DNA of 64,000 nucleotides from a plasmid. Where the stretch lies: assembly GCF_054482525.1 (NCBI RefSeq), contig NZ_JBTHVG010000003.1; one strand, 5' to 3'. The notes beneath the pieces were generated by a model. That model did no database searches. It was not told the DNA's origin and saw nothing but the letters and a program-made list of their open reading frames with translations. This document shows positions 7,205-63,524 of this stretch, one piece after another. A program made the position numbers and the translations under genes. The stretch's first letter is position 1, and each line of letters opens with the position of its first letter.

Positions 7205-8389
7205 TCATGACTGTCCCTTGTTCATCTTATCAGCATGCTTACGCAGGTACTCTTTCAGGTCAGCATGAGCGTTGATGATATCGTTCATTTCATCATTGGT
7301 CAGAACAAGCGTGTAAGTATCAGTACTGACAGATTCACCTTCTTTAAGCTTGGCTTCTTCAGCAATACGTTCAAAAATCGGGATCGCGGTGTCTGCAATG
7401 ACGGTCACAGTCTTTTTGTTCAGAACGCTGGACATGGAAGGTGCTTTACCTGCCGGGTTCTGTTTAGGAGCGCTGTCCTTTGGAGCTGGAGCCGGTTCCT
7501 GTACCGGTGGCGTATCCAGCGTCTCCGTATTGCTTTCATCGTTCAGTTGATCCGGTACCGGGGTGTTATCGGTAGTATCATCTGCCGGTTGCTCAGCACC
7601 GATGTTTTCCGGAGTCTGCGGATCTGCCATGCGCTCTTCTACCTTGGCAGCTTTGACGAATTTCAGCGTGTTTTTCGTCGCCTTGCCATAGATGGAGATC
7701 GCTTTGTTGATGTTATCTACCGCATCCTCACCGCTGTACATATACTCGTCCAGTGCAACGTACATGCTCACCTGATCGCTCACAAGCATGGTCTGTAGTT
7801 CAGAAGGCAGGTCCAGTACGCGAACCATCTGGCGAAGATGCTGCTCTGATTTACCACGTTTTTTTGCCAGTTCCGCAAAGGTCTTAGGCTCTTCTTTATC
7901 TTCAACCAGACGCTTAATTGAAAGCGCTTCAGCTACGACAGACAGCGCCAGGTTGGAGTTGCCGGTCAGGGTGAAGAGTTCTGCTTTTGAAGCGCTACCG
8001 CGAAACTCTTCGCAGCGAATACGAGTAATGCGTTCACGCCCTTCTGCTTCCAGCTGGCGGTTTGCAATAGCGATGGAACGGATACGGCAAGCCCCCTGAC
8101 GCAGTACAGGTACGCCATTAACCATCTGAACAACGATAGGCGTCACGCTGAACGGGTCTTCCATGTAGGCATCGGCCAGGCTGTTCAGGTGTTCCACAAC
8201 GTGAGGCATTGAATAGTAGAGCTCGCCCATACCGGCCGTGCGGGTGTTAAAGCCTTCCTGCTCTACAACAACCGAAGGGTCAATGATAAGGCCGTTGCCT
8301 TTACGGGCACCGTTACCAGTGCGTTCCAGGTAACCACGAAGGCTGATTTCGTTGCTGTTGTTTTTTACTTCAGTTTCGATTGCGGACAT
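7205..8389 (-). CDS. ParB-like nuclease-domain protein (paralog 1)
   Basis: ParB/Srx-type N-terminal motif 'VLRQGACRIRS', HTH-like segment, acidic Pro-rich C-terminus; ~400-bp upstream leader with two palindromic motif copies. Confidence 0.6.
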   Translation of the reverse strand: MSAIETEVKNNSNEISLRGYLERTGNGARKGNGLIIDPSVVVEQEGFNTRTAGMGELYYSMPHVVEHLNSLADAYMEDPFSVTPIVVQMVNGVPVLRQGACRIRSIAIANRQLEAEGRERITRIRCEEFRGSASKAELFTLTGNSNLALSVVAEALSIKRLVEDKEEPKTFAELAKKRGKSEQHLRQMVRVLDLPSELQTMLVSDQVSMYVALDEYMYSGEDAVDNINKAISIYGKATKNTLKFVKAAKVEERMADPQTPENIGAEQPADDTTDNTPVPDQLNDESNTETLDTPPVQEPAPAPKDSAPKQNPAGKAPSMSSVLNKKTVTVIADTAIPIFERIAEEAKLKEGESVSTDTYTLVLTNDEMNDIINAHADLKEYLRKHADKMNKGQS

Positions 8390-8476
8390 TTTTGTTCTCT
8401 TTTTTGGTTGGTTGTTTAACTGCGCTACAACACAACAATACCAGGTTCGACATTTTTCCTAATAGGTTGCGGAGAA

Positions 8477-8493
8477 GAAAAAGTAACTTTTTT
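8477..8493. promoter_or_regulatory. palindromic motif copy (gaaaaagtaactttttt)
   Basis: Read directly; 5' of ParB-like gene 7205-8389. Confidence 0.4.
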
Positions 8494-8603
8494 TAAAAAT
8501 TTTCCTGAGGCAATACTACTCGATCCGTCCGTTTTAAATCTTCACAACAGTGGGCCGTTTTTACGTTTAAGCAAAATAACTGGTTCAGAAGGTGACTCAG
8601 AGA

Positions 8604-8619
8604 GAAAAGTTACTTTTCC
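8604..8619. promoter_or_regulatory. palindromic motif copy (gaaaagttacttttcc)
   Basis: Read directly; second copy in same leader; preceded by ggtgactcag as at 3421. Confidence 0.4.
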
Positions 8620-9490
8620 GGTTGTCTGGGCCAGTGATGGGAGAGTGGCAGGACAGGAATGGCTAAACCGGTGCGGGTCTCTTGTAAGTCGCAGGGGATT
8701 CAGGAGATATAGAGGTAAACTGGTACGTTCAGTTTTTGGATTGAGCCGGGCTTTTGGCCCGGGCTTAAGGAAGCAGAAATTTGAACGAACTGGCAGGTAA
8801 TGCTTTATGCCGCCGACAGCTGGCCGTCAGTGCTTTGCTGTTCTGGTTTGACAGTTGGGGGATAACCGGCAGTTAGCCGCTGGCATTCCGCATCACAGAA
8901 AGCCCTGAGGTTGCTGAAGACGGACTCCATGAAATCAGCATGAGCATACGAGTCTACAGGACGTGTCTTGTTATCTTTCATCTTGTTCTCCTCAATCATT
9001 ATTAAAACCAGCGGATTTAGTTTCTGGCGCTCCATCTGCTGACCGGCTTTCCCAGAGAGCAGCGATGTGTCGGGTTCTTTTTCTCATTTTATCGTTTTCA
9101 TCGGGCCCATCCGGGCGTATAAGAGACCGATTTGGCATGTTTAGGAAACGTACTGGCGTAATTAAAAGCTGAGGTTGGATTTGGAATAAAAGGATGCTTT
9201 TCCCGTTTGTCGGGTCTTTCGCCACCGCTGCACGATGATTCTGTCAGGCATTCTGCGCCCTCCCAGGCTGCACATCTGGAAACAAGCGTTGGGATGTTCC
9301 CTTCCCCTGCTCACCGTAGAAAGATCGGCAAGTCCCGACGGTCGTTCCGTACGAGCCGGGTCCAAATAATGAATAAATAAAACGCCGCTTCAATTGTATT
9401 GACAATAGAAGTCAGGAGGATCATAGTGTCATTCATGGTGCGGCTTTCACACCACCGCCCCGGCGGTACCGGGCAGAACTGGAGTACCTC

Positions 9491-12199: not shown

Positions 12200-13538
12200 C
12201 ATAAGCGCTAACTTAAGGGTTGTGGTATTACGCCTGATATGATTTAACGTGCCGATGAATTACTCTCACGATAACTGGTCAGCAATTCTGGCCCATATTG
12301 GTAAGCCCGAAGAACTGGATACTTCGGCACGTAATGCCGGGGCTCTAACCCGCCGCCGCGAAATTCGTGATGCTGCAACTCTGCTACGTCTGGGGCTGGC
12401 TTACGGCCCCGGGGGGATGTCATTACGTGAAGTCACTGCATGGGCTCAGCTCCATGACGTTGCAACATTATCTGACGTGGCTCTCCTGAAGCGGCTGCGG
12501 AATGCCGCCGACTGGTTTGGCATACTTGCCGCACAAACACTTGCTGTACGCGCCGCAGTTACGGGTTGTACAAGCGGAAAGAGATTGCGTCTTGTCGATG
12601 GAACAGCAATCAGTGCGCCCGGGGGCGGCAGCGCTGAATGGCGACTACATATGGGATATGATCCTCATACCTGTCAGTTCACTGATTTTGAGCTAACCGA
12701 CAGCAGAGACGCTGAACGGCTGGACCGATTTGCGCAAACGGCAGACGAGATACGCATTGCTGACCGGGGATTCGGTTCGCGTCCCGAATGTATCCGCTCA
12801 CTTGCTTTTGGAGAAGCTGATTATATCGTCCGGGTTCACTGGCGAGGATTGCGCTGGTTAACTGCAGAAGGAATGCGCTTTGACATGATGGGTTTTCTGC
12901 GCGGGCTGGATTGCGGTAAGAACGGTGAAACCACTGTAATGATAGGCAATTCAGGTAATAAAAAAGCCGGAGCTCCCTTTCCGGCACGTCTCATTGCCGT
13001 ATCACTTCCTCCCGAAAAAGCATTAATCAGTAAAACCCGACTGCTCAGCGAGAATCGTCGAAAAGGACGAGTAGTTCAGGCGGAAACGCTGGAAGCAGCG
13101 GGCCATGTGCTATTGCTAACATCATTACCGGAAGATGAATATTCAGCAGAGCAAGTGGCTGATTGTTACCGTCTGCGATGGCAAATTGAACTGGCTTTTA
13201 AGCGGCTCAAAAGTTTGCTGCACCTGGATGCTTTGCGTGCAAAGGAACCTGAACTCGCGAAAGCGTGGATATTTGCTAATCTACTCGCCGCATTTTTAAT
13301 TGACGACATAATCCAGCCATCGCTGGATTTCCCCCCCAGAAGTGCCGGATCCGAAAAGAAGAACTAACTCGTTGTGGAGAATAACAAAAATGGTCATCTG
13401 GAGCTTACAGGTGGCCATTCGTGGGACAGTATCCCTGACAGCCTACAAAACGCAATTGAAGAACGCGAGGCATCGTCTTAACGAGGCACCGAGGCGTCGC
13501 ATTCTTCAGATGGTTCAACCCTTAAGTTAGCGCTTATG
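12200..13538 (+). mobile_element. IS186 (IS4 family), complete
   Basis: Transposase recognised from memory as IS186; terminal inverted repeats cataagcgctaacttaaggg / cccttaagttagcgcttatg; flanked by duplicated GC-rich gggggttgccccc target. Ends +/- a few bp. Confidence 0.85.
12249..13367 (+). CDS. IS186 transposase
   Basis: 372-aa ORF 'MNYSHDNWSAILAHIGKPEELD...' with IS4-family 'YRLRWQIELAFKRLK' motif. Confidence 0.85.
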   Translation: MPMNYSHDNWSAILAHIGKPEELDTSARNAGALTRRREIRDAATLLRLGLAYGPGGMSLREVTAWAQLHDVATLSDVALLKRLRNAADWFGILAAQTLAVRAAVTGCTSGKRLRLVDGTAISAPGGGSAEWRLHMGYDPHTCQFTDFELTDSRDAERLDRFAQTADEIRIADRGFGSRPECIRSLAFGEADYIVRVHWRGLRWLTAEGMRFDMMGFLRGLDCGKNGETTVMIGNSGNKKAGAPFPARLIAVSLPPEKALISKTRLLSENRRKGRVVQAETLEAAGHVLLLTSLPEDEYSAEQVADCYRLRWQIELAFKRLKSLLHLDALRAKEPELAKAWIFANLLAAFLIDDIIQPSLDFPPRSAGSEKKN

Positions 13539-13561
13539 GGGGTTGCCCCCCTCTTTGTCAG

Positions 13562-13720
13562 CTACTTACCGGATTCGTAGGCCAGGATAGCAAATACCTC
13601 CCTTGTTCCGTCTTTCATCCGCAACTCGCAAAGCGAGTTTCGTGTGAGCCAGGTGAATATCAACAGCGTTAAACAAACTATTAATATGCACAAAACAATG
13701 GGTTGGTTCGGCATTTTCAT
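13562..13720 (-). CDS. hok: Hok/Gef-family type I toxin
   Basis: 52-aa product '[52 protein letters not shown]' closely resembles Hok/FlmA; an overlapping mok-like extension reaches 13777. Confidence 0.75.
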
Positions 13721-13818
13721 GGCCTTCTTCTCCTTGCATTTAAGCAGGCAAGAGGCTACGCTGTGTGTGACTAGCATACAGGGGCCTCGGGTTGTACTGA
13801 CCCCAGAAAGTTGGACAG

Positions 13819-14670
13819 TTAAACACGAGGCATATAGGTCTGATTCCGATATTCAATTGGAGTCAGACCTTTTAATTTCAGGCTAATTCTTCTGCTGTTG
13901 TAGTATTCAATATATTCCGTAACAGCATCCTTCAGCTCGCTTATATTACTGAACTCATCAAGATAAAAACACTCCGACTTTAAGGTTCCAAAGAAACACT
14001 CCACCACAGCATTATCCAGACAATTGCCTTTTCTGGACATGCTTTGTTTAATACCATGTTCTTTAAGGATATTTTGATATCTTCTCATACGATACTGCCA
14101 TCCCTGGTCAGAGTGCAGAACAGGATGCTCGTGAGGATTAAGCTTTTTGAATGCCTGATCGAGCATATTCTCGACCATGTTCATCACTGGTCTTTCCGAA
14201 AGGCTGTAAGAAATAACTTCGTTGTTGAAGAGATCTATTACTGGAGACAAATACAGCTTGCGCCCATTGACTGCAAATTCAGTAACATCGGTAACCCACT
14301 TCTCGTTTGGCCGCGTAGCCTTGAAATCTCTTTGGAGAACATTGGGGGCGGTTTGCCCTACCTCTCCTCTGTAAGAGCGGTATCGCTTGACCTTAATCGC
14401 TGCCTTCAGTGAGAGGATTCCCATCAGGCGCTGAACAGCTTTATGGTTAATCTGTTTCCCTTCTCGATGAAGAGACAGCGTTACCCTACGGTATCCGTAT
14501 CGGCCTCTATTCTCATGATAAATCTCACCAATACGCTTTTTAACGTCCGCATACTTGTCAGGCTTGCTGAGAGCCTTTAGATGGTAATAAAACGTACTGC
14601 GCGGTATCTCCGCAGCCCTGAGAAGCTCATCAAGAGGATAAAACTGCCTTAGCTCGTTGAGTACTTTCAC
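13819..14670 (-). CDS. IS150 OrfB (IS3-family transposase catalytic part)
   Basis: 283-aa ORF overlapping orfA end; DDE integrase-like. Confidence 0.8.
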
Positions 14671-15188
14671 TTTTTCGTGGGATGAGCTAAGGCTTTCAGC
14701 TTTTTTAGATACACAAGCCGCGTTTCAAGAAATCGAACTTGCCTTTCAAGATCCTCAATGCGTCGGTCTTTTGACAGCTCCAATGCTGATGCCGCTTTTT
14801 CTGGATCAACTGATATTGCAATGTTTCTTTTGGTGCCAATCTTGAGCGCGCGTAAACCAGCTTCTCCGCGCTCTTCATAAACCTTCAGCCACCTGGCTAC
14901 AGAACCACTACCAGCAAGCATAAAGTGAGCAGCAGCCTGATTAAGGGACATGTGCTGCTCGATCACCGCTTTCACGACCTTAATACGCAACTCAGGATCA
15001 GCACTAACACCTTTAGGTTTGGGAATTAAACCTTTTTCTCCATGTTTTTCATAGAGGGCAACCCATGTCCTGACCTGGGTTCGGGGGACACCAAAACGTG
15101 CCGAGATGATCCTGTAACCATCATCAGTAGTGAAGTAGTGATTCACGACTTCAAGGCGCTTTTCAAAAGGGTATTTTGGCTTTGACAT
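14667..15188 (-). CDS. IS150 OrfA (IS3-family transposase N-terminal HTH part)
   Basis: 173-aa ORF inside IS150. Confidence 0.8.
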   Translation of the reverse strand: MSKPKYPFEKRLEVVNHYFTTDDGYRIISARFGVPRTQVRTWVALYEKHGEKGLIPKPKGVSADPELRIKVVKAVIEQHMSLNQAAAHFMLAGSGSVARWLKVYEERGEAGLRALKIGTKRNIAISVDPEKAASALELSKDRRIEDLERQVRFLETRLVYLKKLKALAHPTKK

Positions 15189-16341: not shown

Positions 16342-16623
16342 TTACTCTTTTTCCTGCATAGCGGCTTTTTCAGCCCGGGTGGCCAGGCGAGCATTTCCGA
16401 AAGGTTCACGGACAAGCAGGGGCTTCTCCTTCTTCCAGCCCCTGATAGCCGTTTCTCCAAAACGACGTGGTGCATTGCCGTTCCAGCGAGCAATCACATG
16501 ATTATCATGAATTTCTATAATGACAACGGGGTGGACAATGACCGTTGTAATGGTGGTATTTCCCATTTTGGTACGGGTTACAGACCAAACCTGCATCCCG
16601 GATTCCAGCTGGCTGATTTTCAT
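16342..16623 (-). CDS. hypothetical protein
   Basis: ORF. Confidence 0.3.
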   Translation of the reverse strand: MKISQLESGMQVWSVTRTKMGNTTITTVIVHPVVIIEIHDNHVIARWNGNAPRRFGETAIRGWKKEKPLLVREPFGNARLATRAEKAAMQEKE

Positions 16624-18050: not shown

Positions 18051-18254
18051 TTAAATCTGTGAAGTATTTTTGAGAGATTTTTTGCGATCCAGATGCCGGG
18101 CAACAATGGTTCCGATAACAAGTAGCATGATGACCGCACTGAAGAAGGTGCTGTCAGGGACGCCCTGGAAAAAATCACTGAAACTGTAAACAATAAAAAT
18201 CAATGCGCAAAAATAGAAAACGATACGAACATAAGGGGTAAAAAACATTTTCAT
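18051..18254 (-). CDS. small membrane protein (hypothetical)
   Basis: ORF with two hydrophobic helices; palindromic motif ~140 bp upstream. Confidence 0.35.
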   Translation of the reverse strand: MKMFFTPYVRIVFYFCALIFIVYSFSDFFQGVPDSTFFSAVIMLLVIGTIVARHLDRKKSLKNTSQI

Positions 18255-18390: not shown

Positions 18391-18407
18391 GGTGAAAGTT
18401 ACTTTCC
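18391..18407. promoter_or_regulatory. palindromic motif copy (ggtgaaagttactttcc)
   Basis: Read directly; 5' of 18051-18254. Confidence 0.4.
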
Positions 18408-19660: not shown

Positions 19661-19677
19661 CCGGCTAATAACCTGAG
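19661..19677 (-). promoter_or_regulatory. CTCAGGTTATTAGCC-type box
   Basis: Gene-orientation sequence ctcaggttattagccgg, ~50 nt 5' of ATG 19614. Confidence 0.35.
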
Positions 19678-20129
19678 CAGAAAGTTTTCGCACTTTGTTT
19701 GAAAACAACTTTTCTGCTCAGGTTAATGTTAAAGTCGCTGTGTAAAAGATAAAGGGCACTAAAGATGATTTAAGCATCAAACAGACTAAATCGGATTCCG
19801 TCTTTTATATCGCTTTTAAAATAGAATGAATGAAATATAAATTTAGCGTTTATGATTGAACGCTGTAGAGGTTGATTTATCCAGTGATATTCAGTTTGGG
19901 GCCTTAAAAAGGTTTTATTTTGGATTCGAATTACAAAGGGAGCACCGACATTTTTCTGGGGGCTCCCGCAGAGAAAAAGCGGTGAGGCTATGAAGACGAA
20001 GAGGAGGTATTCGACGAAATACTGTATGGCCACAGGAGAGCTTCAGCACCCATATCCTGCCGTCTCGCTCGCCTGTAATGATTTCAACATGTACAACGTC
20101 ATACCACGTAGTTGTATTTCTCACTTTGT

Positions 20130-20450
20130 TTATGCTTCCTGACACCGTGTGAACGCAATCTTCGTCTGGATGCGTTCATAGATGGAAAACTGCCTTTCAA
20201 TGGAACCGGCATTAGACAGTAATTCATGAAGCTCAGCAGAGTCTGTATCGGGAACGATAGCTACAGAAACTCCATATCTCCGTCCAATTTTGATTAGGTG
20301 CGCAAGCTGTTCTTTTTCGGATTCTGTGAGCATTGCCAGATCTCTTCCGGACACCTGCTCTATAAACGAACCAAGGTTTTTGGGAAAAAAGGGTTCGGCA
20401 TCAGAGTTATGTGCTGGGCGCGTCTGCGGCTTATCGAAGCTATTGGGCAT
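20130..20450 (-). CDS. hypothetical protein
   Basis: ORF; palindromic motif ~150 bp upstream. Confidence 0.35.
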   Translation of the reverse strand: MPNSFDKPQTRPAHNSDAEPFFPKNLGSFIEQVSGRDLAMLTESEKEQLAHLIKIGRRYGVSVAIVPDTDSAELHELLSNAGSIERQFSIYERIQTKIAFTRCQEA

Positions 20451-20599: not shown

Positions 20600-20614
20600 T
20601 TAAAGTAACTTTCC
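20600..20614. promoter_or_regulatory. palindromic motif copy (ttaaagtaactttcc)
   Basis: Read directly; 5' of 20130-20450. Confidence 0.4.
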
Positions 20615-49108: not shown

Positions 49109-49220
49109 TAAGTCTAACCTCACTACCATTGTCACTTAAAATCATTACCAACGTCGAAATAGTCTCTACCATTGTCTTTTAAGTCACTCCCGTTGTCACT
49201 TATGTCGCTACTGTTGTCAG
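49109..49220. repeat. upstream iteron cluster 2 (five ~21-bp direct repeats)
   Basis: cactaccattgtcac-like repeats at ~21-bp period. Confidence 0.6.
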
Positions 49221-52194: not shown

Positions 52195-52211
52195 GCAAAA
52201 GTAACTTTTTG
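52195..52211. promoter_or_regulatory. palindromic motif copy (gcaaaagtaactttttg)
   Basis: Read directly; 5' of paralog C. Confidence 0.4.
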
Positions 52212-52259
52212 TATCCACTTTTTTGGATTTTAGCCTTCAAAATGAGTATTCAACCAATC

Positions 52260-52275
52260 ATAAAAGTAACTTTTG
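52260..52275. promoter_or_regulatory. palindromic motif copy (ataaaagtaacttttg)
   Basis: Read directly; second copy 5' of paralog C. Confidence 0.4.
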
Positions 52276-52535: not shown

Positions 52536-52901
52536 ATGATTGATGTCTTAGGACCGGAGAAACGCAGACGGCGTACTACACAGGAAAAGATCGCTATTGT
52601 TCAGCAGAGCTTTGAACCGGGAATGACGGTCTCCCTTGTTGCCCGGCAACACGGTGTGGCAGCCAGCCAGTTATTTCTCTGGCGCAAGCAATACCAGGAG
52701 GGAAGTCTTACTGCTGTGGCCGCAGGAGAACAGGTCGTTCCTGCCTCTGAACTTGCTGCTGCCATGAAGCAGATTAAAGAACTCCAGCGCCTGCTCGGCA
52801 AAAAAACGATGGAAAATGAACTCCTTAAAGAAGCCGTTGAATACGGGCGTGCAAAAAAGTGGATAGCGCACGCGCCCTTATTGCCCGGGGATGGGGAGTA
52901 A
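52536..52901 (+). CDS. insC: IS2 InsC (OrfA)
   Basis: '[26 protein letters not shown]...' recognised as IS2 OrfA. Confidence 0.85.
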
Positions 52902-53764
52902 GCTTAGTCAGCCGTTGTCTCCGGGTGTCGCGTGCGCAGTTGCACGTCATTCTCAGACGAACCGATGACTGGAAAGATGGTCGCCGCAGCCGTCACTCAG
53001 ATGATACGGATGTGCTTCTCCGTATACACCATGTTATCGGAGAGCTGCCCACGTATGGTTATCGTCGGGTATGGGCGCTGCTTCGCAGACAGGCCGAACT
53101 TGATGGTATGCCTGCTATCAATGCCAAACGTGTTTACCGGATCATGCGCCAGAATGCGCTGTTGCTTGAGCGAAAAACCGCTGTACCGCCATCGAAACGG
53201 GCACATACTGGCAAAGTGGCCGTGAAAGAAAGCAATCAACGATGGTGCTCTGACGGGTTCGAGTTCCGCTGTGATAACGGAGAAAAACTGCGAGTCACGT
53301 TCGCGCTGGACTGCTGTGACCGTGAGGCACTGCACTGGGCAGTCACTACGGGCGGCTTCGACAGTGAAACAGTACAGGACGTAATGCTGGGAGCGGTGGA
53401 ACGCCGCTTCGGCAACGAGCTTCCGGCGTCTCCAGTAGAGTGGCTGACGGATAATGGTTCATGCTACCGGGCTAATGAAACACGGCAGTTTGCCCGGATG
53501 TTGGGGCTTGAACCGAAGAACACGGCGGTGCGGAGTCCGGAGAGTAACGGCATAGCAGAGAGCTTCGTGAAAACGATAAAGCGTGACTACATCAGTATCA
53601 TGCCTAAACCAGACGGGTTAACGGCAGCAAAGAACCTTGCAGAGGCGTTCGAGCATTATAACGAATGGCATCCGCATAGTGCACTGGGTTATCGCTCGCC
53701 ACGGGAATATCTACGGCAGCGGGCCAGTAATGGGTTAAGTGATAACAGGTGTCTGGAAATATAG
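52859..53764 (+). CDS. insD: IS2 InsD (OrfB)
   Basis: 301-aa ORF overlapping insC 3' end; recognised as IS2 OrfB. Confidence 0.85.
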
Positions 53765-53918
53765 GGGCAAATCCATCTGATGCTCAACAGTACATTCGTT
53801 ATGTTCAGAGCAATGTCTGCAATAAGTAAAGGATCCGCTAAAGAAAACCGGTCTGAAATATCGCTGATAGTCCTAGCAACACTTGGAATCGCATCACCAT
53901 TCAGGTAATGACTCCAAC

Positions 53919-54422
53919 TTATTGATAGTGTTTTATGTTCAGATAATGCCCGATGACTTTGTCATGCAGCTCCACCGATTTTGAAAACGACAGCGACTTC
54001 CGTCCCAGCCGTGCCAGGTGCTGCCTCAGATTCAGGTTATGCCGCTCAATTCGCTGCGTATATCGCTTGCTGATTACGTGCAGCTTTCCCTTCAGGCGGG
54101 ATTCATACAGCGGCCAGCCATCCGTCATCCATATCACCACGTCAAAGGGTGACAGCAGGCTCATAAGACGCCCCAGCGTCGCCATAGTGCGTTCACCGAA
54201 TACGTGCGCAACAACCGTCTTCCGGAGCCTGTCATACGCGTAAAACAGCCAGCGCTGGCGCGATTTAGCCCCGACGTATCCCCACTGTTCGTCCATTTCC
54301 GCGCAGACGATGACGTCACTGCCCGGCTGTATGCGCGAGGTTACCGACTGCGGCCTGAGTTTTTTAAGTGACGTAAAATCGTGTTGAGGCCAACGCCCAT
54401 AATGCGGGCGGTTGCCCGGCAT
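53919..54422 (-). CDS. insB: IS1 InsB
   Basis: 167-aa ORF overlapping insA end. Confidence 0.85.
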
Positions 54423-54616
54423 CCAACGCCATTCATGGCCATATCAATGATTTTCTGGTGCGTACCGGGTTGAGAAGCGGTGTAAGTGAACTGCAGTTGC
54501 CATGTTTTACGGCAGTGAGAGCAGAGATAGCGCTGATGTCCGGCGGTGCTTTTGCCGTTACGCACCACTCCGTCAGTAGCTGAACAGGAGGGACAGCTGA
54601 TAGAAACAGAAGCCAC
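54341..54616 (-). CDS. insA: IS1 InsA
   Basis: 91-aa '[43 protein letters not shown]...'. Confidence 0.9.
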
Positions 54617-54688
54617 TGGAGCACCTCAAAAACACCATCATACACTAAATCAGTAAGTTGGCAGCATCACCCACCATTCATTGTCGCA

Positions 54689-55153
54689 ATGATTACTATT
54701 AATGAAAGTATGACATCTAAAACAGTAACAGATTTTTCTTTGGGTGCTCAGTGGTACGGAATGGTTTCAGCGGTAGCGCTAATGGGGTTATATGCTCGAC
54801 GCGTTTGGAAAGAGAAGAAGTCCTTATTTACTGGCGCTTTCCTGGCCTCTTCCTTAATGGCCTTTATTTTTACTGACAGCCTTGTTTTCGTATCCCAGAA
54901 GGACACCGGCGTTCTGGCTACTTTCGTACTCGATAAAAACGCTGGAGATATTGATTGTAGTCGCCCGGCTATGATTGTCCATTACAGTAAAGGTGTTCCA
55001 ACGGACTGGCGTTGCCCAACCAGTATCATGTTGATGGCGTATTCTTCATATCCTTTTTTACCCTGGCCTGAGTATAGCCATGGTACCAGCCAGTCTCTTA
55101 CGGTTGTTATTGATACATTTATGGAAAACGCTGTTAATCTCAGCCAAAAATAA
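54689..55153 (+). CDS. membrane hypothetical protein (ORF begins 18 bp after IS1 end)
   Basis: ORF with hydrophobic helix; followed by hairpin terminator; 5' region may have been disrupted by IS1. Confidence 0.35.
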   Translation: MITINESMTSKTVTDFSLGAQWYGMVSAVALMGLYARRVWKEKKSLFTGAFLASSLMAFIFTDSLVFVSQKDTGVLATFVLDKNAGDIDCSRPAMIVHYSKGVPTDWRCPTSIMLMAYSSYPFLPWPEYSHGTSQSLTVVIDTFMENAVNLSQK

Positions 55154-56155: not shown

Positions 56156-57847
56156 TCATAGGACTTCCTCTTGTTGAATACGTTCGGCGTACAGGATGCG
56201 AACCGAAACGGTCGTGTTTTCAAACTCGTTCTCAAAAACGTCCATCCATTCCGTCCGGAATTCTTCCCCCAAAAGGTTATCGAGCCCCTGAAGAGATAAT
56301 GGAAGAACGGCTGCTAGAGATCCCCCGGCTGCGAGATGAGATGCAGCTGCCTGGAGATGCAGCCTGGCCCGGTTATCGGCAAAAGGTGGGTTCATCACGA
56401 CATAATCAAACTTCTTCTGTTGATTAGACTTAGACCATGTGAGGAAGTCAGCTTCTGTCGTATCGTATCCCTTAGCCCGGGAGATAAGGCAATTCAAAGT
56501 ATCAAGCTCGATGCCAGTAACGATCACACCGGCAGGGAATGATTTAAGCAAATCCGCATGGCCAATATTAGGCTCCAGGAGGGTATCCCCTTCCCCTGCA
56601 CCAAGCAGGGAAGATACATATTCGCTGATTCGGCAAGATGAAGGGTAAAACTGATGCGATACAATATCAGGCATCTCCCCTATCTGGCCGATGTAACGAA
56701 TAACCTCACACGGATCATAGGAAAATGTCACATCGTATTTTGTTACTGTTGCCCCTAAGAACCGAAGGGTGTCAGCGGCAACACTCGAAGATTTGCGTTC
56801 GGCGAGAGACCCTAAAGATGTCCAGCAACTCCATTTATTGTCCCCGTCATTTTTAAACATCAGTTCAGAAAGCTGCATCCGGGTATCAAAGTCGATGCAC
56901 TGCTTAAGTACAGGGAATGCCTCCAAAGATTTCTTGCTATGAGCCATACGGTCGGCAGGTAATGCCAGCGGTACGATAGCTGATAAAATATTGTTAAGCC
57001 GCTCGGCGATATCAGGGTGGACGTCAATATGCATTGATCCATTTTTGTAAACCCTGAAACGAATACTGTTGCCATCGATGCAGATCCATTTTCTGAACCC
57101 CTCATGTTCGACCAACGCCTCAACCAATGATTTGGTGTTATGGATCGCCTTCACCTGTTCGCCACGGAAGAATGCGCATATAACGCGGAGCTCGCTCAGC
57201 GGTGAAATGCCAGACTCTTTAAAATCCACCCTTAATTTCTGCCAGGGGTATTTAGACGGCTCGCAAACTCCGGTAGTGATCATGCGGGTGGAGAACCCAA
57301 AAGCTTTGTTTGTCTTGTGACTGCGGCTCAGAGACTGGAAGACGTCGTAAACCCTTTCTTTAATAAATTGATTGCGGTCATTAAGCAAAGCAACGACTGT
57401 GCCCACTACAGCGTCAGCTGTGAAATCAGGGATCACCTGAGGCGGCATAATATAACGGTCGGCCGTAAACTGCTTATCCCATTCGTTACGTTTGGCATCC
57501 GACATGATAGGCAAAACATCAGTGAGTGCCATAACGCATTTCCAGTATTCTGATCTCAGAGCGTTTTCTGCGAACAAAGCATCCGCTTCTGAGATGCTGT
57601 GGTTGTAGCCTGAGAGATAAGAATAAAGTTTCTGGTGATTGTGGGTTTTGAACTGGACAGCCATGAGTTTCAACAAGCAGAGTTCATCATTATAGGACTC
57701 AACAAGATCCGCGATAATGCCGAGCTCTTTGCGCATATCTGGAAGAAATGTTTCAGGAGAGCTAACCACCAGGCTATGAGAGGTTGTTAAAGCCAGTACG
57801 CTGTGACCTGCATTATCGGGTTTAGCTTCAGAATCAAGAGATGACAT
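56156..57847 (-). CDS. N6-adenine DNA methyltransferase-like protein with ~380-aa N-terminal extension (long form)
   Basis: C-terminal 'ITGIEL' and 'DYVVMNPPF' motifs paralogous to 39005-39829. Confidence 0.6.
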   Translation of the reverse strand: MSSLDSEAKPDNAGHSVLALTTSHSLVVSSPETFLPDMRKELGIIADLVESYNDELCLLKLMAVQFKTHNHQKLYSYLSGYNHSISEADALFAENALRSEYWKCVMALTDVLPIMSDAKRNEWDKQFTADRYIMPPQVIPDFTADAVVGTVVALLNDRNQFIKERVYDVFQSLSRSHKTNKAFGFSTRMITTGVCEPSKYPWQKLRVDFKESGISPLSELRVICAFFRGEQVKAIHNTKSLVEALVEHEGFRKWICIDGNSIRFRVYKNGSMHIDVHPDIAERLNNILSAIVPLALPADRMAHSKKSLEAFPVLKQCIDFDTRMQLSELMFKNDGDNKWSCWTSLGSLAERKSSSVAADTLRFLGATVTKYDVTFSYDPCEVIRYIGQIGEMPDIVSHQFYPSSCRISEYVSSLLGAGEGDTLLEPNIGHADLLKSFPAGVIVTGIELDTLNCLISRAKGYDTTEADFLTWSKSNQQKKFDYVVMNPPFADNRARLHLQAAASHLAAGGSLAAVLPLSLQGLDNLLGEEFRTEWMDVFENEFENTTVSVRILYAERIQQEEVL

Positions 57848-58094: not shown

Positions 58095-59258
58095 TTATTC
58101 TGCGTCCGGCTGTGGGTCAGTATCCTGATCGGTCTCTTCCCCTGCCTTCTTAGCATTTTTTTTACGTGGGTATTTTGGCTTCTCACCATTAAGTTTTGCC
58201 TGACGATTCTCCGCACGGCGAAGCTGCTTGTTCTCTGATTCTGTGATCTCTTTTGAAAGATTTCTCAACATCTCCAGAGTACTGCGGTTCAACGTAATGT
58301 TGATTTCTTCGTCAGCACTTGAATCTGTCAGCTCCGGCAATTCAATATCCCCCAGTTTCTGTAATAAGCTGGTGGTGATGAGTTTGACGCCTTCTACGGC
58401 TTTTGTGGCAATAACCGGCGGAATCCGTGCTGGCTTGAAGTCTGAAGGTCTGACTCGTACCTGACCATGTTGGGTTTTTTTCACCGTGATGCCATTCGCA
58501 TCGGCCTGCTCAAGTTCTGCGATCATCTTCTTGATACGTGAAATTGCTTCTGTTTCGCCGAGCTCATCGATCAGTGAAAGCACGTTAACATACGAAATAG
58601 CGTCAGCATGAATCCATTTCTTGATAACAACAGAACAGGTTGTCAGGCGGATAAGAGAACTGATGGTCGTCGGGCTTTTATTTTCACGTTGAGCAATTCG
58701 TTCGAGTGACCAGCCAGCAAGAGAATGTAGGCGACGATAGGACTCGCCAAGCGCAACAGGAGAAAGCGCAAGACCACGGTTACCATCAATGGTCGCGAGC
58801 TCACAGCCAATTTCATCTTCTTTAATCTCAACGCAAAGGATTGTGATGTCATGATCTTCATCACATGCCATCATTGCGGCTTTTAAACGGCAGTGCCCCT
58901 GGCGAACAAAAGGTACCCCATCAATGACACGTACTCGGATAGGGTCTACATAGTCACCTCGAATGTAGGCATTCTTGATGTTGTAGATGTGTTCTTCAAC
59001 CTCAGGGAGCTTATAGTAATCGTCACCCATTCCCATTTCGCGGGAGTTGAAGCCTGGCGTGACCTGAATTACTGAAGGGTGGATAGCCCATGCTTTCTGG
59101 TCACTTACTTCAGTACAAAGTTCAGGGTTTGCATCACGGAACTGTTTAAGCCCAGTGACGTAACGGCCTGTGCCAGTAACTACTGAAAAGGCAACATGGG
59201 CCGTTTTAAAGACCTTGTCATTAGCTTGCTGTGTAGGTTCTGTCAGTAAAACACTCAT
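58095..59258 (-). CDS. ParB-like nuclease-domain protein (paralog 2)
   Basis: 'VPFVRQGHCRLKAA' ParB/Srx motif, HTH-like segment, basic/acidic C-terminal tail. Confidence 0.6.
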   Translation of the reverse strand: MSVLLTEPTQQANDKVFKTAHVAFSVVTGTGRYVTGLKQFRDANPELCTEVSDQKAWAIHPSVIQVTPGFNSREMGMGDDYYKLPEVEEHIYNIKNAYIRGDYVDPIRVRVIDGVPFVRQGHCRLKAAMMACDEDHDITILCVEIKEDEIGCELATIDGNRGLALSPVALGESYRRLHSLAGWSLERIAQRENKSPTTISSLIRLTTCSVVIKKWIHADAISYVNVLSLIDELGETEAISRIKKMIAELEQADANGITVKKTQHGQVRVRPSDFKPARIPPVIATKAVEGVKLITTSLLQKLGDIELPELTDSSADEEINITLNRSTLEMLRNLSKEITESENKQLRRAENRQAKLNGEKPKYPRKKNAKKAGEETDQDTDPQPDAE

Positions 59259-59535
59259 AGGGGCTCCGTTACATTTTTCTGCTTACTTTCTGCGTAGCGG
59301 GGATACTACCGAAAAAAAAATTCATAATTTTTCGCAAAAAAGGTACTTTTTGAGCCTATTCTGATTTTTTACAAAAAAAGGTGGCTCCCCATTACTTGTG
59401 ATGGCATAAAAATCGCTTCATAAACAAATACATAAATCCAAAACATAAAGTTCAGGTATAAGTGAGGAAAAATCTTATAAATCCGAAATGCTGAAAGTCA
59501 AAACTGTGCGTCTTAAACAACTTTTTTTTGCTCCC

Positions 59536-59606: not shown

Positions 59607-60440
59607 TTGACTCGACATCTCAGACACATGCCGATAATCAAATGGGCTGGTGGAAAAACGAAACTGATGCCTTTCATCAGCCATCACTACCCACACGATC
59701 ATAGTTGCCGGTGGGTAGAACCCTTTATAGGCGGTGGTGCCGTTTTTCTGAACATGTTTGCACAAAATGCATTGCTTGCAGATAGCAATCCAGACTTGAT
59801 CAACCTATACAGGACTATTCAAAGACAGAAAACTAACTTTATAAATCAGGTCCAAAACTTGGCGGATAAAACCTTTGTCGAAAAGGACTACTATGAGATG
59901 AGGGACCGTTTCAACAAAACCTGTATTTCTGGTCAATCGCTTCAAAGAGCGGCTTTGTTTTACTCCCTGAATCGCCTGGGCTATAACGGTATGTGCCGCT
60001 ATAACTCAGAAAGAATCTATTCAGTGCCGTGGGGGAAACATACAGAACTGAAGCTTGACCTCAATAAAATAGACTACCTTTCATTTCGTCTTTCAGGTAT
60101 TGAACTGATCACCGCTGGTTTTGAGGAGACTCTGGCCGCAACCGGTGAAGGAGATCAGATTTACTGTGATCCGCCATATGACAAAACAAGCAAAACTAGT
60201 TTTGTCAGTTACGATGGTAAACCGTTCAGCCAAAGCGACCACGTGCTGTTAGCAAATATGCTCGTTGACGCTCACAGAAAAGGCGCTGCTGTTGCGATAT
60301 CAAATAGCCTGACATCATTCACTTTGGGCCTCTATGAAGAGCGTGGATTCGTCATACACAGACTCAGCGCTTACCGATCCGTAGGAAGTAAGCCGAATAC
60401 ACGGAAAACGGAAACAGAAATACTGGCCGTGCTGAAATAG
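59607..60440 (+). CDS. Dam-family N6-adenine DNA methyltransferase
   Basis: 'IIKWAGGK' N-terminal motif and 'DPPY' motif IV; probable true start at internal Met (~59628). Confidence 0.7.
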   Translation: MTRHLRHMPIIKWAGGKTKLMPFISHHYPHDHSCRWVEPFIGGGAVFLNMFAQNALLADSNPDLINLYRTIQRQKTNFINQVQNLADKTFVEKDYYEMRDRFNKTCISGQSLQRAALFYSLNRLGYNGMCRYNSERIYSVPWGKHTELKLDLNKIDYLSFRLSGIELITAGFEETLAATGEGDQIYCDPPYDKTSKTSFVSYDGKPFSQSDHVLLANMLVDAHRKGAAVAISNSLTSFTLGLYEERGFVIHRLSAYRSVGSKPNTRKTETEILAVLK

Positions 60441-60448
60441 AGTAAATT

Positions 60449-61306
60449 CTAATCAACTAGGCTAATCCATTCCTCAAAAGTTAATACCTCAGGGTAAGTT
60501 CGTTGAACATAAGGTATAAACTGAAGCTCTTCTATTCTCCGGTCGCCCCTCTTTCCTTCGCAAATAAATGAAATGAGTCCTTGCTGAGAAAGGCCAGTAA
60601 GGACGCTCATAAGTCTTATATTTAGACTTTTAAGCTGTAAGTCGTTATTAATGTCCTCCACTTTATGAGAGCTCTGGCCTGAACGTTTAAGATACTCGTA
60701 AACCATGAAATTCGAATTTCGTCGTTTTAACAATTTTTCGGTTATGCATTCCTGAATGAAGTCGCCAAGAGCATCTAAAAGCGGACTGAGAACTACCGGG
60801 AAAGTTAATGTGTAACTTTGAGAAGTTTTAGACAAAGTGAATGAGTTTAGAAAGCTAAAGTTTAGTCTCTTTTTTGAATATGGAACATAAGCGACAAGAG
60901 TAGTCGACATAACAGTAAGTAAAGCTTCAAGATGGTTCACTGTTATTAAAGTGGTTTTATCTGTATTTCTAAGATTATGGAAATCAATAAACGCTACTCT
61001 TGAACGGCTAAGCCAATCTTGTACTTTAATGTCGATAGAAAATTGCGAGATATGATTTGAACATTCATTTTGGGTGATAGGGCATGCAGACGAAAGATGG
61101 TTATGGATTATCATGCATAGCACAAAAAAAGGAAAACGGCAGGCTGTGGGGCATTGAAAACCGGTTAAAGAAAGCTTAGACGTTTCATATGCGCTTACCG
61201 GAAAAGTAACTTTTCTTAACGTTGGCTTTGACGATGTTCTTGCATTTTTACAAATGAAACCGAGACCCAGATCATTGTGCATTTTAAAGTCCATCTCCAT
61301 CATCAC
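60449..61306 (-). CDS. hypothetical protein (true start probably internal)
   Basis: Low-GC ORF; a palindromic motif copy lies inside the annotated N-terminus. Confidence 0.3.
   Translation of the reverse strand: MMMEMDFKMHNDLGLGFICKNARTSSKPTLRKVTFPVSAYETSKLSLTGFQCPTACRFPFFVLCMIIHNHLSSACPITQNECSNHISQFSIDIKVQDWLSRSRVAFIDFHNLRNTDKTTLITVNHLEALLTVMSTTLVAYVPYSKKRLNFSFLNSFTLSKTSQSYTLTFPVVLSPLLDALGDFIQECITEKLLKRRNSNFMVYEYLKRSGQSSHKVEDINNDLQLKSLNIRLMSVLTGLSQQGLISFICEGKRGDRRIEELQFIPYVQRTYPEVLTFEEWISLVD
61197..61216. promoter_or_regulatory. palindromic motif copy (ccggaaaagtaacttttctt)
   Basis: Read directly; inside annotated 5' end of 60449-61306. Confidence 0.35.
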
Positions 61307-61537
61307 CTTTTAGCCTTAACTGTATGGTATTGGTATACAAAAAATTAAAATTATAATTAATAAGATTATCATTTTTTTACAATAGAAAAGGTTCTGATAG
61401 AGGGGAATTTAAATGTAAAAGATTTATACTCGCAGATCTTTATGAGGGATAAAACCCATTGCGTAAGCAACAATATTACGTGAGTGAGTCCTAACGACAG
61501 TTAAAGTCTTGGCTCTATATTTAAGCAGCAAAAACAT

Positions 61538-62254
61538 TTAACTGTCTTGGAGTTTATTTAACTTAAAAACTGTTATTGCAGCATAATTTTTCGAATCAAA
61601 TTCATAGAATTTTCTGACTTTTCCAGTCAAATGATAACGTTCACCCAATAAAATGTGATCCTGTTTATCGGCCGTTAAAGCGATCCCGTCATTTCTAACT
61701 TTACCAGTAAATGTAAAAAAATAACTCCCTTTACTTTTTGCGTACGCGGCCCTGACTTCAGTAAATGTTAGTTCAATGCTTATGACCTGGCCGATATTGT
61801 AGCTATGTTTTAAAATTTCTTGTTCATTTTCCGGAGTTTCAGACAACATCACATCAAAAGTTGTAAATAAACAATCCAGCTGGCGTTCTGTCAAGAAACG
61901 GTTATTGTCTAATTGCGCCAATATACTATTAGAAAACTTAGTGTTAGCCTTTTTTGCTTTCTCAATAAGGACGTGGTTTCTGGATTTCCATGCTTCGAGT
62001 GTTGGGTTAACACGCAGTTCCGGAATGTTATCGAGAAAGGTAATTGGCTCTAGTGCCACTAATTTTTCAATAATGGGTCCAACTGTTTGTACCCCATGAC
62101 ACTTTTCACATAAATCAGCCCCTTTGTGGCCTGTGCCCGCACATTCGTTACATTCTCTTTCGATAGGTGCATAATAATTTCCATCTCCGTTAAGTGATAC
62201 ATTCACTGAGGCTGGTACCATATGACCATCAAGAGTAAAGAAAAGAGATTTCAT
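61538..62254 (-). CDS. hypothetical protein with Cys-rich segment
   Basis: 'CNECAGTGHKGADLCEKCHG'. Confidence 0.35.
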   Translation of the reverse strand: MKSLFFTLDGHMVPASVNVSLNGDGNYYAPIERECNECAGTGHKGADLCEKCHGVQTVGPIIEKLVALEPITFLDNIPELRVNPTLEAWKSRNHVLIEKAKKANTKFSNSILAQLDNNRFLTERQLDCLFTTFDVMLSETPENEQEILKHSYNIGQVISIELTFTEVRAAYAKSKGSYFFTFTGKVRNDGIALTADKQDHILLGERYHLTGKVRKFYEFDSKNYAAITVFKLNKLQDS

Positions 62255-62451
62255 TTTCGAAACACCTCCAAACGTGCCTCTACGATTGCTACAGCTTCTT
62301 TCACAGTTTTTTCATAGTGGTCATGCCCTTCAGGAAATTGATCAAAACGTTTACCGTGTTCTAACTCTTCCATGTTGCGTTTAAGGACTTCATGAGTTAG
62401 AAGCAAATCACTATAATTATCGATAAGAGTCAGCTTTATAGGTTTAATCAC
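62251..62451 (-). CDS. hypothetical small protein
   Basis: ORF overlapping next gene by 4 nt. Confidence 0.3.
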   Translation of the reverse strand: MIKPIKLTLIDNYSDLLLTHEVLKRNMEELEHGKRFDQFPEGHDHYEKTVKEAVAIVEARLEVFRK

Positions 62452-62468
62452 TCAACTAATCCTCGTTT

Positions 62469-63524
62469 TTAATATTCCTTAAGGAGATCTCGAATTTCCA
62501 GAAGCTCTTCTAATTTTGGTTTAGAAACAATGATTGCTGTATTTTCGTCGTTAAGTAAAGACAATAAAATATTTAGCTTTTCATCATTCAAGATTATTTG
62601 AACACCATCATTGGAAAATATTACATTATTACTATTAACATTTTTGAACAAGTGTGCACTATCTCTACCAAATTTTAGTTCTGTTTGAGTATTCGTTATA
62701 GATTCCGTATGTGTACTTTCCACAAGCTCAAGAAATTCAGATTTTAGCCGTTCTGTTTTCTTATGCGAGAGGCGCTTAATACCCAAAGTCTTACGAGTGA
62801 CTGCCGAATTTTTCTTTTCTGGTCCGCCTTTATTTAAGGTGTCTGGTCCTGCTCCAGCTGCATTGTGTTCAGGTATGCCTACAATTTTGCTCGTTGTAGT
62901 CTCAATATTCTTAACGCCAGGTAAGAAACCTTCTATATGTTTTAAAACCATTTTGTGATCGTTGGAATATTTTAACATTATTTCAATGGCGAGCGTTTTT
63001 TTGATTAGATTTAGGCTAATCAAACGTTGAAGCTCTAATGGCATATCAAGGATTTTTAGCATATTACGAATTGCGGTAGTTGATCGTTGATATCGCATTG
63101 CTAGTTCTTCAACCGAATACCCGAGACTAACAGCATGAGCTAATGCATGAGCTTGCCCAACCGGATTTAGCCCATTGCTTCTGTTACCATCGAGGTTCTC
63201 AAGGTATTCTTCAATTTCGTTTTTATAATCGATTAGGATAACAGATAATTTTGGAATATTAGCACCTTCAGAAATTGCTAATTTTAAGCCATGAAAACGA
63301 GTATGACCTTGACGAACTAAATATTTACCTTTTCTTTTTACGACCTTGATCATATCAACCTGCCTTCCTTCCTTAAAGGCTTGTTTGATTGACACAATCA
63401 TCGACTTGACAGGTTCTTGTTCGTAACACAAATCTCCGATTACCGCCTCTCGGGGATTAAATCCCTTTTCAATTTCAACTAGATTAGTATCCACTTCAAT
63501 GACTGTATGTTTGCTGTTGTTCAT
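62469..63524 (-). CDS. ParB-like nuclease-domain protein (paralog 3, low GC)
   Basis: 'YLVRQGHTRFHGLKLA' ParB/Srx motif and HTH-like segment. Confidence 0.6.
   Translation of the reverse strand: MNNSKHTVIEVDTNLVEIEKGFNPREAVIGDLCYEQEPVKSMIVSIKQAFKEGRQVDMIKVVKRKGKYLVRQGHTRFHGLKLAISEGANIPKLSVILIDYKNEIEEYLENLDGNRSNGLNPVGQAHALAHAVSLGYSVEELAMRYQRSTTAIRNMLKILDMPLELQRLISLNLIKKTLAIEIMLKYSNDHKMVLKHIEGFLPGVKNIETTTSKIVGIPEHNAAGAGPDTLNKGGPEKKNSAVTRKTLGIKRLSHKKTERLKSEFLELVESTHTESITNTQTELKFGRDSAHLFKNVNSNNVIFSNDGVQIILNDEKLNILLSLLNDENTAIIVSKPKLEELLEIRDLLKEY

Follow-up and report, generated by a model that had tools for sequence, protein, structure and literature searches.

We analysed a 64,000-nt stretch of plasmid DNA (contig NZ_JBTHVG010000003.1 of NCBI RefSeq assembly GCF_054482525.1; hereafter the window) and found that it comes from a conjugative plasmid of IncHI2 (R478) type, whose relaxase is of the MOBH class and whose mating-pair system is F-type. 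A preliminary description of the sequence had drawn attention to three ParB-like and five methyltransferase-like genes between positions 7205 and 63524, and had read them as an accessory array resembling the anti-restriction region that some conjugative plasmids transfer first. We find that the interval is conserved IncHI backbone, which lies between the Tra1 relaxosome operon and Tra2 and includes the repHI2 replicon. In our judgement the chances are about even that this backbone is also a transfer-associated establishment region, which likely helps the plasmid to survive entry, and this is the interpretation developed here. The sequence and its bare annotations are already known, as are leading-region anti-defence islands as a concept. 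What appears to be new is the case for the IncHI inter-Tra backbone as such a region, with relaxase-first polarity, and the presence of an IncHI-wide candidate operator.

Conserved IncHI backbone

A 24-kb test segment of the window matches 1189 plasmid records, 788 of them at a coverage of at least 80% and nearly all with 95–100% identity; the first 20 kb of the window show the same broad conservation among plasmid records. Record NZ_CP082955.1 is collinear with the window except for an IS91-family insertion (~44–46 kb) and an IS1 (~53.8–54.6 kb), and its annotation was the source for the layout to the left of the window and inside it. Left of the window, the minus strand carries trhG-trhH-trhF...trhY-trhR. 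A 759-bp gap with three AAAGTGACCCTATG/CATAGGGTCACTT hairpins separates trhR from mobI, with which the Tra1 relaxosome (H) operon begins, all on the plus strand and in the order mobI, open reading frame (ORF), mobH(traI), traD, ORF, DUF4400, S49 peptidase, NERD. The operon starts outside the window and its 3′ end (DUF4400/TraJ-like, S49 peptidase and NERD genes) occupies positions 14–2277. The repHI2 replication initiator gene is found at 47389–48477 on the minus strand, and because it sits inside the interval, the interval is core backbone. Just past the window end a RepB-family initiator gene begins, and Tra2 comes next.

The relaxosome operon is followed by 64 backbone genes, 54 of which (84%) are on the minus strand. 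The 64 genes have a median length of 123 aa, coding sequence makes up 74% and 24 of the 61 co-directional gaps are 200 bp or longer, which bears out the earlier remark that the genes are small, co-directional and preceded by long leaders. IncHI1 plasmid pHCM1 has the same order of genes, namely the RepB-family rep, a ParB3-like gene, a small ORF, a Zn-finger-like ORF, a 273-aa ORF, Dam, a ParB2-like gene, a DUF4942 methylase and an Ig-like gene. Judged from these sequence comparisons, the density of methylase and ParB-like genes is a family trait of large MOBH plasmids (IncHI1, IncHI2 and IncC) and not peculiar to this copy, because IncHI1 is syntenic and IncC carries a ParB-like gene, an orthologue of one of the methyltransferases and further methylases. 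The term accessory array or island therefore has to be given up in view of the 788 well-covered records, the synteny with pHCM1 and the position of repHI2; the density that had been called unusual is likewise a trait of the family.

DNA methyltransferases and ParB-like proteins

All five methyltransferase-like genes of the preliminary description, said there to be of different classes, are real. Profile searches of the kind proposed for them, here with Pfam, NCBIfam and PHROG, gave N6_N4_Mtase for the first gene (MT1), PHROG families for MT2 and MT3, DUF4942 for MT4 and Dam for MT5, so that the window credibly encodes four predicted DNA methyltransferases of three classes and one generic S-adenosylmethionine (SAM) methyltransferase. 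MT1 (29018–30268, minus strand) is a beta-class N6/N4 DNA methyltransferase with the motifs TSPPY and DPFAG (Pfam N6_N4_Mtase, E = 1e-21; PADLOC MTase_II, E = 1e-46). Its N-terminal extension is an Mrr_N winged helix (Pfam, E = 2e-6), and it is 50% identical over the full length to an IncC backbone methylase. MT2 (30437–31045, minus strand) is class I SAM-dependent methyltransferase-like and matches phrog_15480 (E = 5e-34). It has no (D/N/S)PP(Y/F) motif IV, weak NCBIfam matches to aminopropyltransferases and KsgA and no PADLOC match, and on these grounds we class it as a generic SAM methyltransferase without assignment to a DNA substrate; a comparison with the 211-aa N6 methylase of IncC says that the two are not orthologous. 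MT3 (39068–39829 within an ORF from 39005, plus strand; phrog_9133, E = 6e-45; PADLOC mad2/MTase_II, E = 4e-14) is a gamma-class NPPF DNA methyltransferase and a short paralogue of the C-terminal catalytic domain of MT4 (27% identity, E = 5e-12). MT4 itself (56156–57847, minus strand), a homologue of R27 R0043, joins DUF4942 to a C-terminal gamma-class NPPF methyltransferase of the YdiA type (Pfam DUF4942, E = 2e-21; phrog_6263 over the full length, E = 1e-111), and its DUF4942 part has homologues in at least 5000 plasmid records. MT5 (59628–60440, plus strand), a homologue of R27 R0041, is a Dam-family (alpha-class, DPPY) adenine methyltransferase (TIGR00571, E = 2e-67, above the cut-off; Pfam MethyltransfD12, E = 1e-48). 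The earlier Dam-like assignment is thus upheld and only its start moves, position 59607 being an upstream TTG.

A 794-aa DndC-like protein of the PAPS-reductase family, with a long unassigned C-terminal half (23450–25834, minus strand; TIGR03183 DndC, E = 6e-34; PADLOC DndC, E = 4e-38), scores below the TIGR03183 cut-off (117.6 versus 290.4 bits) and belongs to the DNA-modification theme of the window. It is not an orthologue of the IncC PAPS reductase according to a direct comparison. Elsewhere on the plasmid there are a Dcm-type methylase and a second DUF4942 gene, neither with an obvious endonuclease.

The observation that no cognate restriction endonuclease adjoins the methylases holds: apart from NERD, Pfam found no nuclease family in the 48 unassigned ORFs, and PADLOC found no restriction-enzyme match among the ten largest of them. 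An HNH ORF at 21808–22341 weakly matches PtuB-type HNH models of PADLOC, and a Pfam scan found no DndA/B/D/E partner among the neighbours of the DndC-like gene, which have no family assignment. The weakest part of the orphan case is a 277-aa ORF at 60449–61282 (minus strand), which is placed tail-to-tail with Dam across an 8-bp gap and belongs to no Pfam, NCBIfam, PHROG or PADLOC family. It has only 14 homologue clusters, of which the long contigs and named sources look IncHI-type, and the best folds for its AlphaFold2 model (predicted local distance difference test score, pLDDT, 65) are RepE/RepA winged-helix domains, weak but consistent, with no nuclease among them. The narrow family and the low-confidence model with RepE/RepA-like folds do not support the idea that this ORF is Dam's restriction enzyme. 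The NERD protein of the relaxosome operon (1546–2277; Pfam NERD, E = 2e-21) is similar to the N-terminal parts of two other proteins, the MADS kinase MAD6 (E = 8e-11) and BREX PglW.

The three divergent ParB/Srx-like genes were also confirmed. They are all on the minus strand and are mutual paralogues with 22–28% identity and a common GFNxR...VRQGHxR core. All three match phrog_1033, 'ParB-like partition protein' (E = 2e-21 to 3e-28), and Pfam HTH_ParB, and their matches to TIGR00180 parB_part (E = 3e-8 to 5e-7) are below the cut-off. ParB1 (7205–8389; phrog_1033, E = 2e-21; TIGR00180, E = 5e-7; HTH_ParB, E = 1.5e-5) is an orphan protein with a ParB/Srx N-domain, a ParB helix-turn-helix (HTH) domain and a proline/acidic-rich C-terminal extension, and its gene is the first of a run with nine small minus-strand ORFs (2564–7139). 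ParB2 (58095–59258; phrog_1033, E = 3e-28), an orphan homologue of R27 R0042, heads the ParB2-MT4 gene pair and is divergent from Dam; its identity to related proteins is 74% in IncHI1, 36% in IncHI1B-type plasmids and 30% in IncC. ParB3 (62469–63524; phrog_1033, E = 2e-25; TIGR00180, E = 3e-8 over residues 6–179), also an orphan, is divergent from the RepB-family initiator gene and followed by a small ORF and a Zn-finger-like ORF, a position that is kept in IncHI1.

A profile of the three proteins aligns to solved ParB/Spo0J/Noc structures over the N-domain and HTH (E = 2e-10; including 4umk and 6sdk). In the alignment the CTP-binding GERR box (GERRxR) is replaced by GACR in ParB1 and by GHCR and GHTR in the other two, which makes canonical CTPase chemistry doubtful. 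The annotation has no ParA or ParM adjoining any of the three genes, and a canonical ParA-ParB pair and ParM are located elsewhere, inside Tra2. A local repeat search found no clustered centromere-like repeat next to ParB1–3, and consensus scans for promoters and terminators upstream of ParB1 and ParB2 were uninformative. On a Klebsiella IncHI1B-type plasmid we observed AACAAC-N3-GTTGTT palindromes clustered around the canonical parA-parB (extract coordinates 25152–26459 and 30150–30216). These arrays look like the centromere of the canonical parAB and are distinct from the dispersed IncHI palindrome described below.

Regulation of the R27 homologues

In R27, homologues of these genes have been shown to belong to the HtdA conjugation regulon and to be co-regulated with the tra genes. 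Expression in an htdA mutant at 25 °C was increased 4.2-fold for R0037, 7.0-fold for R0038, 5.0-fold for R0039 and 18.6-fold for R0040 (PMC7366339), as well as 7.8-fold for R0041 (Dam) and 3.4-fold for R0042 (ParB2-like), and only 1.5-fold for the DUF4942 methylase R0043 (PMC7366339). The signal of R0042, which the R27 annotation calls a 'partition protein', was among the highest on the plasmid (PMC7366339). Deletion of the R0040–R0043 block leaves the vertical stability of R27 unaffected (PMC4853401), which disfavours a partition role and favours one linked to transfer.

oriT and the direction of transfer

The presumed oriT lies ~8 kb to the left of window position 1, upstream of mobI. MobI matches Pfam PF19456 over model positions 1–115 of 116 (E = 4.8e-22) and has no NCBIfam match, and mobH is 0.7 kb downstream. 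Both marks of a MobI-type MOBH oriT module, mobI directly downstream of oriT and a MOBH relaxase, are therefore present. The oriT also adjoins mobI in R27, SXT and Rts1 (PMC10838148). For a MobI-type oriT, polarity has been determined directly in just one experiment, in which an IncC plasmid mobilised the island MGIVchHai6: transfer runs downstream of mobI, and genes upstream of oriT enter last (PMC7449626). Because that oriT transfers downstream of mobI, we consider it probable, although well short of certain, that IncHI2 would enter in the order mobI, traI, traD and then the window, with the plus strand being transferred. The entering strand would then be the template for the 84% of genes that are on the minus strand, and this orientation fits a leading region only under mobI-first polarity. 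On the other side of oriT, the trhR side, the genes are all of the mating-pair or repair kind and most have the 'wrong' orientation. Reviews and an IncA/C relaxosome preprint make no statement on the direction of transfer.

Comparison with known leading regions

The families enriched in leading regions include a ParB-family regulator (family 5), 'DUF4942; methyltransferase; YdiA' (families 24 and 76) and PAPS reductase (PMC11541004, Suppl. Table 1), and the window carries orphan methylases, ParB-family proteins, DUF4942/YdiA and a PAPS reductase. On an IncI plasmid a DUF4942 gene is found two genes from nikA, on the leading side and reading toward oriT. The likeness to IncF and IncI leading regions (PMC11541004) extends to the many small co-directional genes, for which the entering strand would be the template, to toxin-antitoxin genes (hok and RelE) and to the adjoining relaxosome/oriT module. 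In contrast to the F/I layout, the relaxase operon would go first in IncHI, the IncHI region is 64 kb long and has replicons, and ParB1–3 are not orthologues of the leading-region ParB, their strong plasmid matches being of IncHI type and IncC.

IncC/IncA, represented by pPV835TEM24 (NZ_MN148427), likewise has a MOBH relaxase and a MobI-type oriT. It carries the ParB-like homologue (30% identity) and the MT1 orthologue (50% identity) within ~1 kb, together with N6 and C5 (Dcm) methylases, a PAPS-reductase gene, an S49 peptidase, a thermonuclease, RelE and Ig-like proteins, and the whole shared set lies within ~50 kb downstream of mobI. Unlike in IncHI, mobI of IncC is separated from traI, the genes are co-directional with mobI and regulation is by AcaCD and not by TrhR/TrhY/HtdA.

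The spacers of the window are modestly more structured than coding controls when compared with shuffled sequences (mean z −1.2 versus −0.2, p = 0.004), and those that fold best consist of several small stems and not of one long hairpin. A separate observation is a hairpin at 19667–19727 with a stem of ~25–30 bp, formed on the motif AATAACCTGAG in the spacer that precedes the DUF957/DUF3085 genes. Two other spacers have the motif as well (at 17363 and 34894), and it is weakly enriched (6 matches versus 1.3 expected).

A dispersed 13-bp palindrome

The backbone contains a dispersed 13-bp palindrome of 6-1-6 structure, AAAAGT-W-ACTTTT, which written out as a candidate operator is AAAAGTWACTTTT. 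It has 24 strand matches in the window versus 0.5 expected. When one mismatch is allowed there are 42 sites plasmid-wide (NZ_CP082955.1; 0.9 expected), and these are confined to the backbone: the first 55 kb, where the resistance and mer modules are, have no site. An unbiased scan gave 23 perfect copies versus 0.06 expected (~400-fold) and 49 copies of the 11-bp core AAAGT-N-ACTTT versus 0.5, and found no other strongly over-represented palindrome in the backbone. Within the window, 11 of 14 copies of the core are in spacers (P = 6e-5), and ten of these 11 sit 96–227 bp upstream of a minus-strand start codon.

Two copies precede ParB1, at 8480–8490 (96 bp upstream) and 8606–8616 (222 bp). Others are placed at 3431–3441 (169 bp upstream of ORF 2983–3267), 18395–18405 (146 bp; ORF 18051–18254), 20602–20612 (157 bp; ORF 20130–20450), 23333–23343 (138 bp; ORF 22961–23200, just downstream of the DndC-like gene) and 28382–28392 (212 bp; ORF 27849–28175). 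The copy at 32594–32604, 176 bp upstream of ORF 32046–32423, is the nearest upstream one for the MT2/MT1 gene run, and a pair at 52198–52273 (copies at 52198 and 52263) precedes the third Ig-like gene by 162 and 227 bp. The variant AAAAGGTACTTTT is found at 59339–59350 in the divergent ParB2/Dam promoter region, and IncHI1 has the same variant in the same place. A core inside the 5′ end of the 277-aa ORF (61203–61213) is also conserved in IncHI1; further window copies are at 36763, 41583 and 43807. IncHI1 shows an equal enrichment of the palindrome (12 sites in 41 kb). In a distant Klebsiella plasmid of IncHI1B type it is over-represented too, with clusters around htdA and upstream of Tra2. 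A full-text literature search for its sequence found no plasmid paper that describes it.

In the gap with the presumed oriT (NZ_CP082955.1, ~69080–69215) there are three consecutive hairpins AAAGTGACCCTATG-N-CATAGGGTCACTT, the outer half of which resembles the palindrome half-site, and two copies of the palindrome flank them, at the trhR and mobI promoter regions. IncC lacks AAAAGT-W-ACTTTT and has a dispersed intergenic palindrome of its own, ACTTTCACA|TGTGAAAGT, with 6 copies in 41 kb of pPV835TEM24 versus 0.002 expected (extract coordinates 3444, 3903, 9227, 12563, 33022 and 36437). One copy is just upstream of parA and a KorB-domain gene, and this palindrome may be a KorB-type operator.

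The IncHI palindrome is most simply read as a putative operator of the IncHI conjugation circuit (TrhR/TrhY/HtdA), and a ParB paralogue is an alternative candidate for the protein that may bind it. In the IncP plasmid RK2, the ParB-family protein KorB acts as a global regulator through dispersed copies of a 13-bp palindromic operator. The IncHI system is like the KorB regulon in having ParB-family HTH proteins and a dispersed 13-bp 6-1-6 palindrome that is mostly promoter-proximal and links transfer and backbone functions. Unlike KorB, however, ParB1–3 have a degenerate GERR box and no IncC/ParA partner, and their profile match to KorB structures is insignificant (E = 0.4). As candidates for the binder, HtdA or TrhR/TrhY rank no lower than ParB1–3. 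The idea that each ParB paralogue has an enriched palindrome of its own was rejected, only one palindrome being over-represented.

Other features of the window

Beside repHI2 there is a tandem array of ~10 units of 81 bp (46149–46934), each unit with the palindrome TGACAACGGTAGTGA-N9-TCACTACCGTTGTCA, and single copies of the unit occur at 43956, 44151, 46077, 47107 and 47269. Iteron-like repeats of 21 bp upstream of repHI2 (48672–48800 and 49138–49224) have a half-site in common with the array, and both sets are probably RepHI2 iterons or copy-control sites. The array is interrupted by the IS91-family element (~44000–46100; ORF 44678–45877; transposase NF033538, E = 3e-92), which is GC-rich (53%) and not in NZ_CP082955.1. 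Further insertions into the backbone (12255–15188, 52536–53764 and 53800–54650) comprise IS421, IS150, an IS3-family element and IS1, with a hok toxin gene among them; Rfam finds no Sok RNA beside hok. The IS1, a 777-bp difference from the reference, splits a 198-aa ORF, a remnant of which is at 54689–55153.

Three paralogous proteins of ~800 aa have Ig-like domains (35272–37662, minus strand; 41283–43703, plus strand; 49585–52041, minus strand). The 13-bp palindrome lies within two of the three genes and, in two copies, upstream of the third; in IncHI1B-type plasmids there is a tandem run of four Ig-like genes. A 93-aa hypothetical ORF at 16342–16623 is called a 'Brucella suis mprF' resistance gene with 100% identity by PLSDB/RGI, which looks like a spurious database annotation.

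Discussion

Here, we propose that the IncHI backbone between Tra1 and Tra2 is a transfer-associated establishment region. Phages and plasmids have orphan methyltransferases, Dam-type enzymes of phages for example, that pre-empt host restriction, and the IncHI set resembles them in being stand-alone alpha-, beta- and gamma-class enzymes on a mobile element with no cognate endonuclease. In the mechanism that we envisage, transfer from the MobI-type oriT would begin with mobI, and the region would enter directly after mobI-traI-traD. The methylases would act on the plasmid twice, first in the donor once it is competent for transfer and then in the recipient on the newly made duplex, so that hemi- or fully methylated DNA could escape several type II specificities. 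The ParB-like proteins, in place of partition, would regulate through DNA binding or organise the incoming DNA.

A number of observations weigh against this proposal. Unlike IncF and IncI leading regions, the IncHI region has no ssb, psiB/psiA, ardA or klcA: neither these nor ardB or acr were found in the 48 unassigned ORFs (Pfam; also PHROGs and NCBIfam). Frpo/ssi-type hairpin promoters were not detected either, given that no long hairpin of this kind occurs in the leaders, where inverted repeats of 16 nt or more are short or part of the repHI2 array, and Rfam at gathering thresholds has no match in the whole window. Samuel et al. take the first ~28 ORF positions as the leading region; of the gene runs in the window only that of ParB1 falls within them, and the methylases, at 37–68 kb from oriT, lie outside. 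The term 'leading-region-like' is thus apt for the ParB, DUF4942 and PAPS families, and fails on the classical markers, the hairpin promoters and the distance of the methylases. Polarity is a further difficulty. The rule of Samuel et al. that the leading side is opposite the relaxase puts the window last (PMC11541004), nic could not be mapped in IncA/C by Hegyi et al. (PMC5587640), and in the MOBH system of the gonococcal island nic is 5′ of the inverted repeat, an atypical geometry (PMC6736028) that makes extrapolation to IncHI uncertain. Locating oriT and the relaxase, as had been suggested, hence gives a divided answer: oriT at ~8 kb and the gene orientation fit a mobI-first transfer, and the relaxase rule says the opposite. 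The orientation argument alone is weak, because the IncC homologues point the opposite way: they are co-directional with mobI, which makes their strand the 'wrong' one if the entering strand is to be the template. Expression of Dam and the DUF4942 methylase in wild-type R27 is low, with no induction at 25 °C (PMC7366339). Finally, the anti-restriction role of the IncHI methylases is a putative one.

Several of these points feed the alternative that the interval serves general backbone housekeeping, which we regard as possible but doubtful. With the relaxase transferred last, as usual, the region would also enter last, the methylases would have epigenetic or regulatory roles (e.g. Dam on the neighbouring replicons and promoters) and the ParB-like proteins would be transcription factors or nucleoid organisers. 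The relaxase rule of Samuel et al. (PMC11541004), the absence of classical markers and single-stranded-DNA promoter structures, the failure of the orientation argument in IncC and the low wild-type expression of R0041 and R0043 all agree with it, as do the two replicons inside or beside the region and the higher expression of most non-tra R27 genes at 37 °C (PMC7366339). However, the one direct experiment on the polarity of a MobI-type oriT gave the opposite result (PMC7449626), the trhR side offers only mating-pair and repair genes in mostly 'wrong' orientation, the kinds of genes match leading-region families and mutation of htdA de-represses the module along with the tra genes. More specialised roles fare worse. 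That methylases, HNH, NERD and DndC-like proteins are parts of plasmid-borne defence (restriction-modification, Dnd or MADS/BREX-like) against phages or rival plasmids is suggested by the matches of MT1 and MT5 to type II methylase models, the weak ones of MT3 and MT4 to MADS mad2, the DndC match, the likeness of NERD to the MAD6 and PglW N-termini and the HNH gene at 21808–22341. We nevertheless hold it to be highly improbable: PADLOC and Pfam found no complete system (no restriction enzyme, DndA/B/D/E, PglZ/BrxC or MADS partner), the candidate partners are kilobases apart in separate transcription units and the ORF that converges on Dam resembles winged-helix proteins and not nucleases. There is very little probability, too, that ParB1–3 are centromere-binding partition proteins for several replicons, with the methylases as unrelated passengers. 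Homology to ParB over the N-domain and HTH, the position of ParB3 beside the RepB-family replicon and of ParB2 within ~10 kb of repHI2, and the label of R0042 would suit such a role; yet no ParA or ParM is adjacent and the canonical ParA-ParB and ParM are in Tra2, G(H/A)(C/T)R stands in place of the GERR box, the R0040–R0043 deletion does not destabilise R27 and ParB1–3 have no clustered centromere-like repeat, whereas the canonical parAB of an IncHI1B-type plasmid has palindrome arrays of its own.

A bolder extension of the establishment proposal is unlikely in our view, and would make the region part of a global circuit of the KorB/VirB kind. One or more of the ParB paralogues, with their non-canonical nucleotide box, would bind the ~50 AAAGT-N-ACTTT operators. 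The orphan methylases, the DndC-like enzyme, the Ig-like proteins and dozens of small ORFs would thereby form an early establishment regulon that is coupled to tra. With the relaxase operon going in first, as from a MobI-type oriT, this regulon would be the true IncHI leading region, and surveys that place the relaxase last would have it misoriented. The dispersed palindrome offers a defined cis element with which to take apart the TrhR/TrhY/HtdA circuit or to study a ParB-like regulator.

IncHI2 plasmids are major carriers of mcr-1, extended-spectrum beta-lactamase and metal-resistance genes, and most of their backbone is annotated as 'hypothetical'. For the MobI-type MOBH elements as a group (IncHI, IncC/A, IncT, SXT/R391 and mobilisable islands), taking the relaxase as the mark of the lagging side may mislead; if that is wrong, comparative surveys misplace leading regions and label the trhR-trhG side of IncHI as 'leading'. 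If the establishment proposal is true, the orphan methylases and ParB-like proteins would be candidate host-range determinants of these plasmids and possible targets against their spread.

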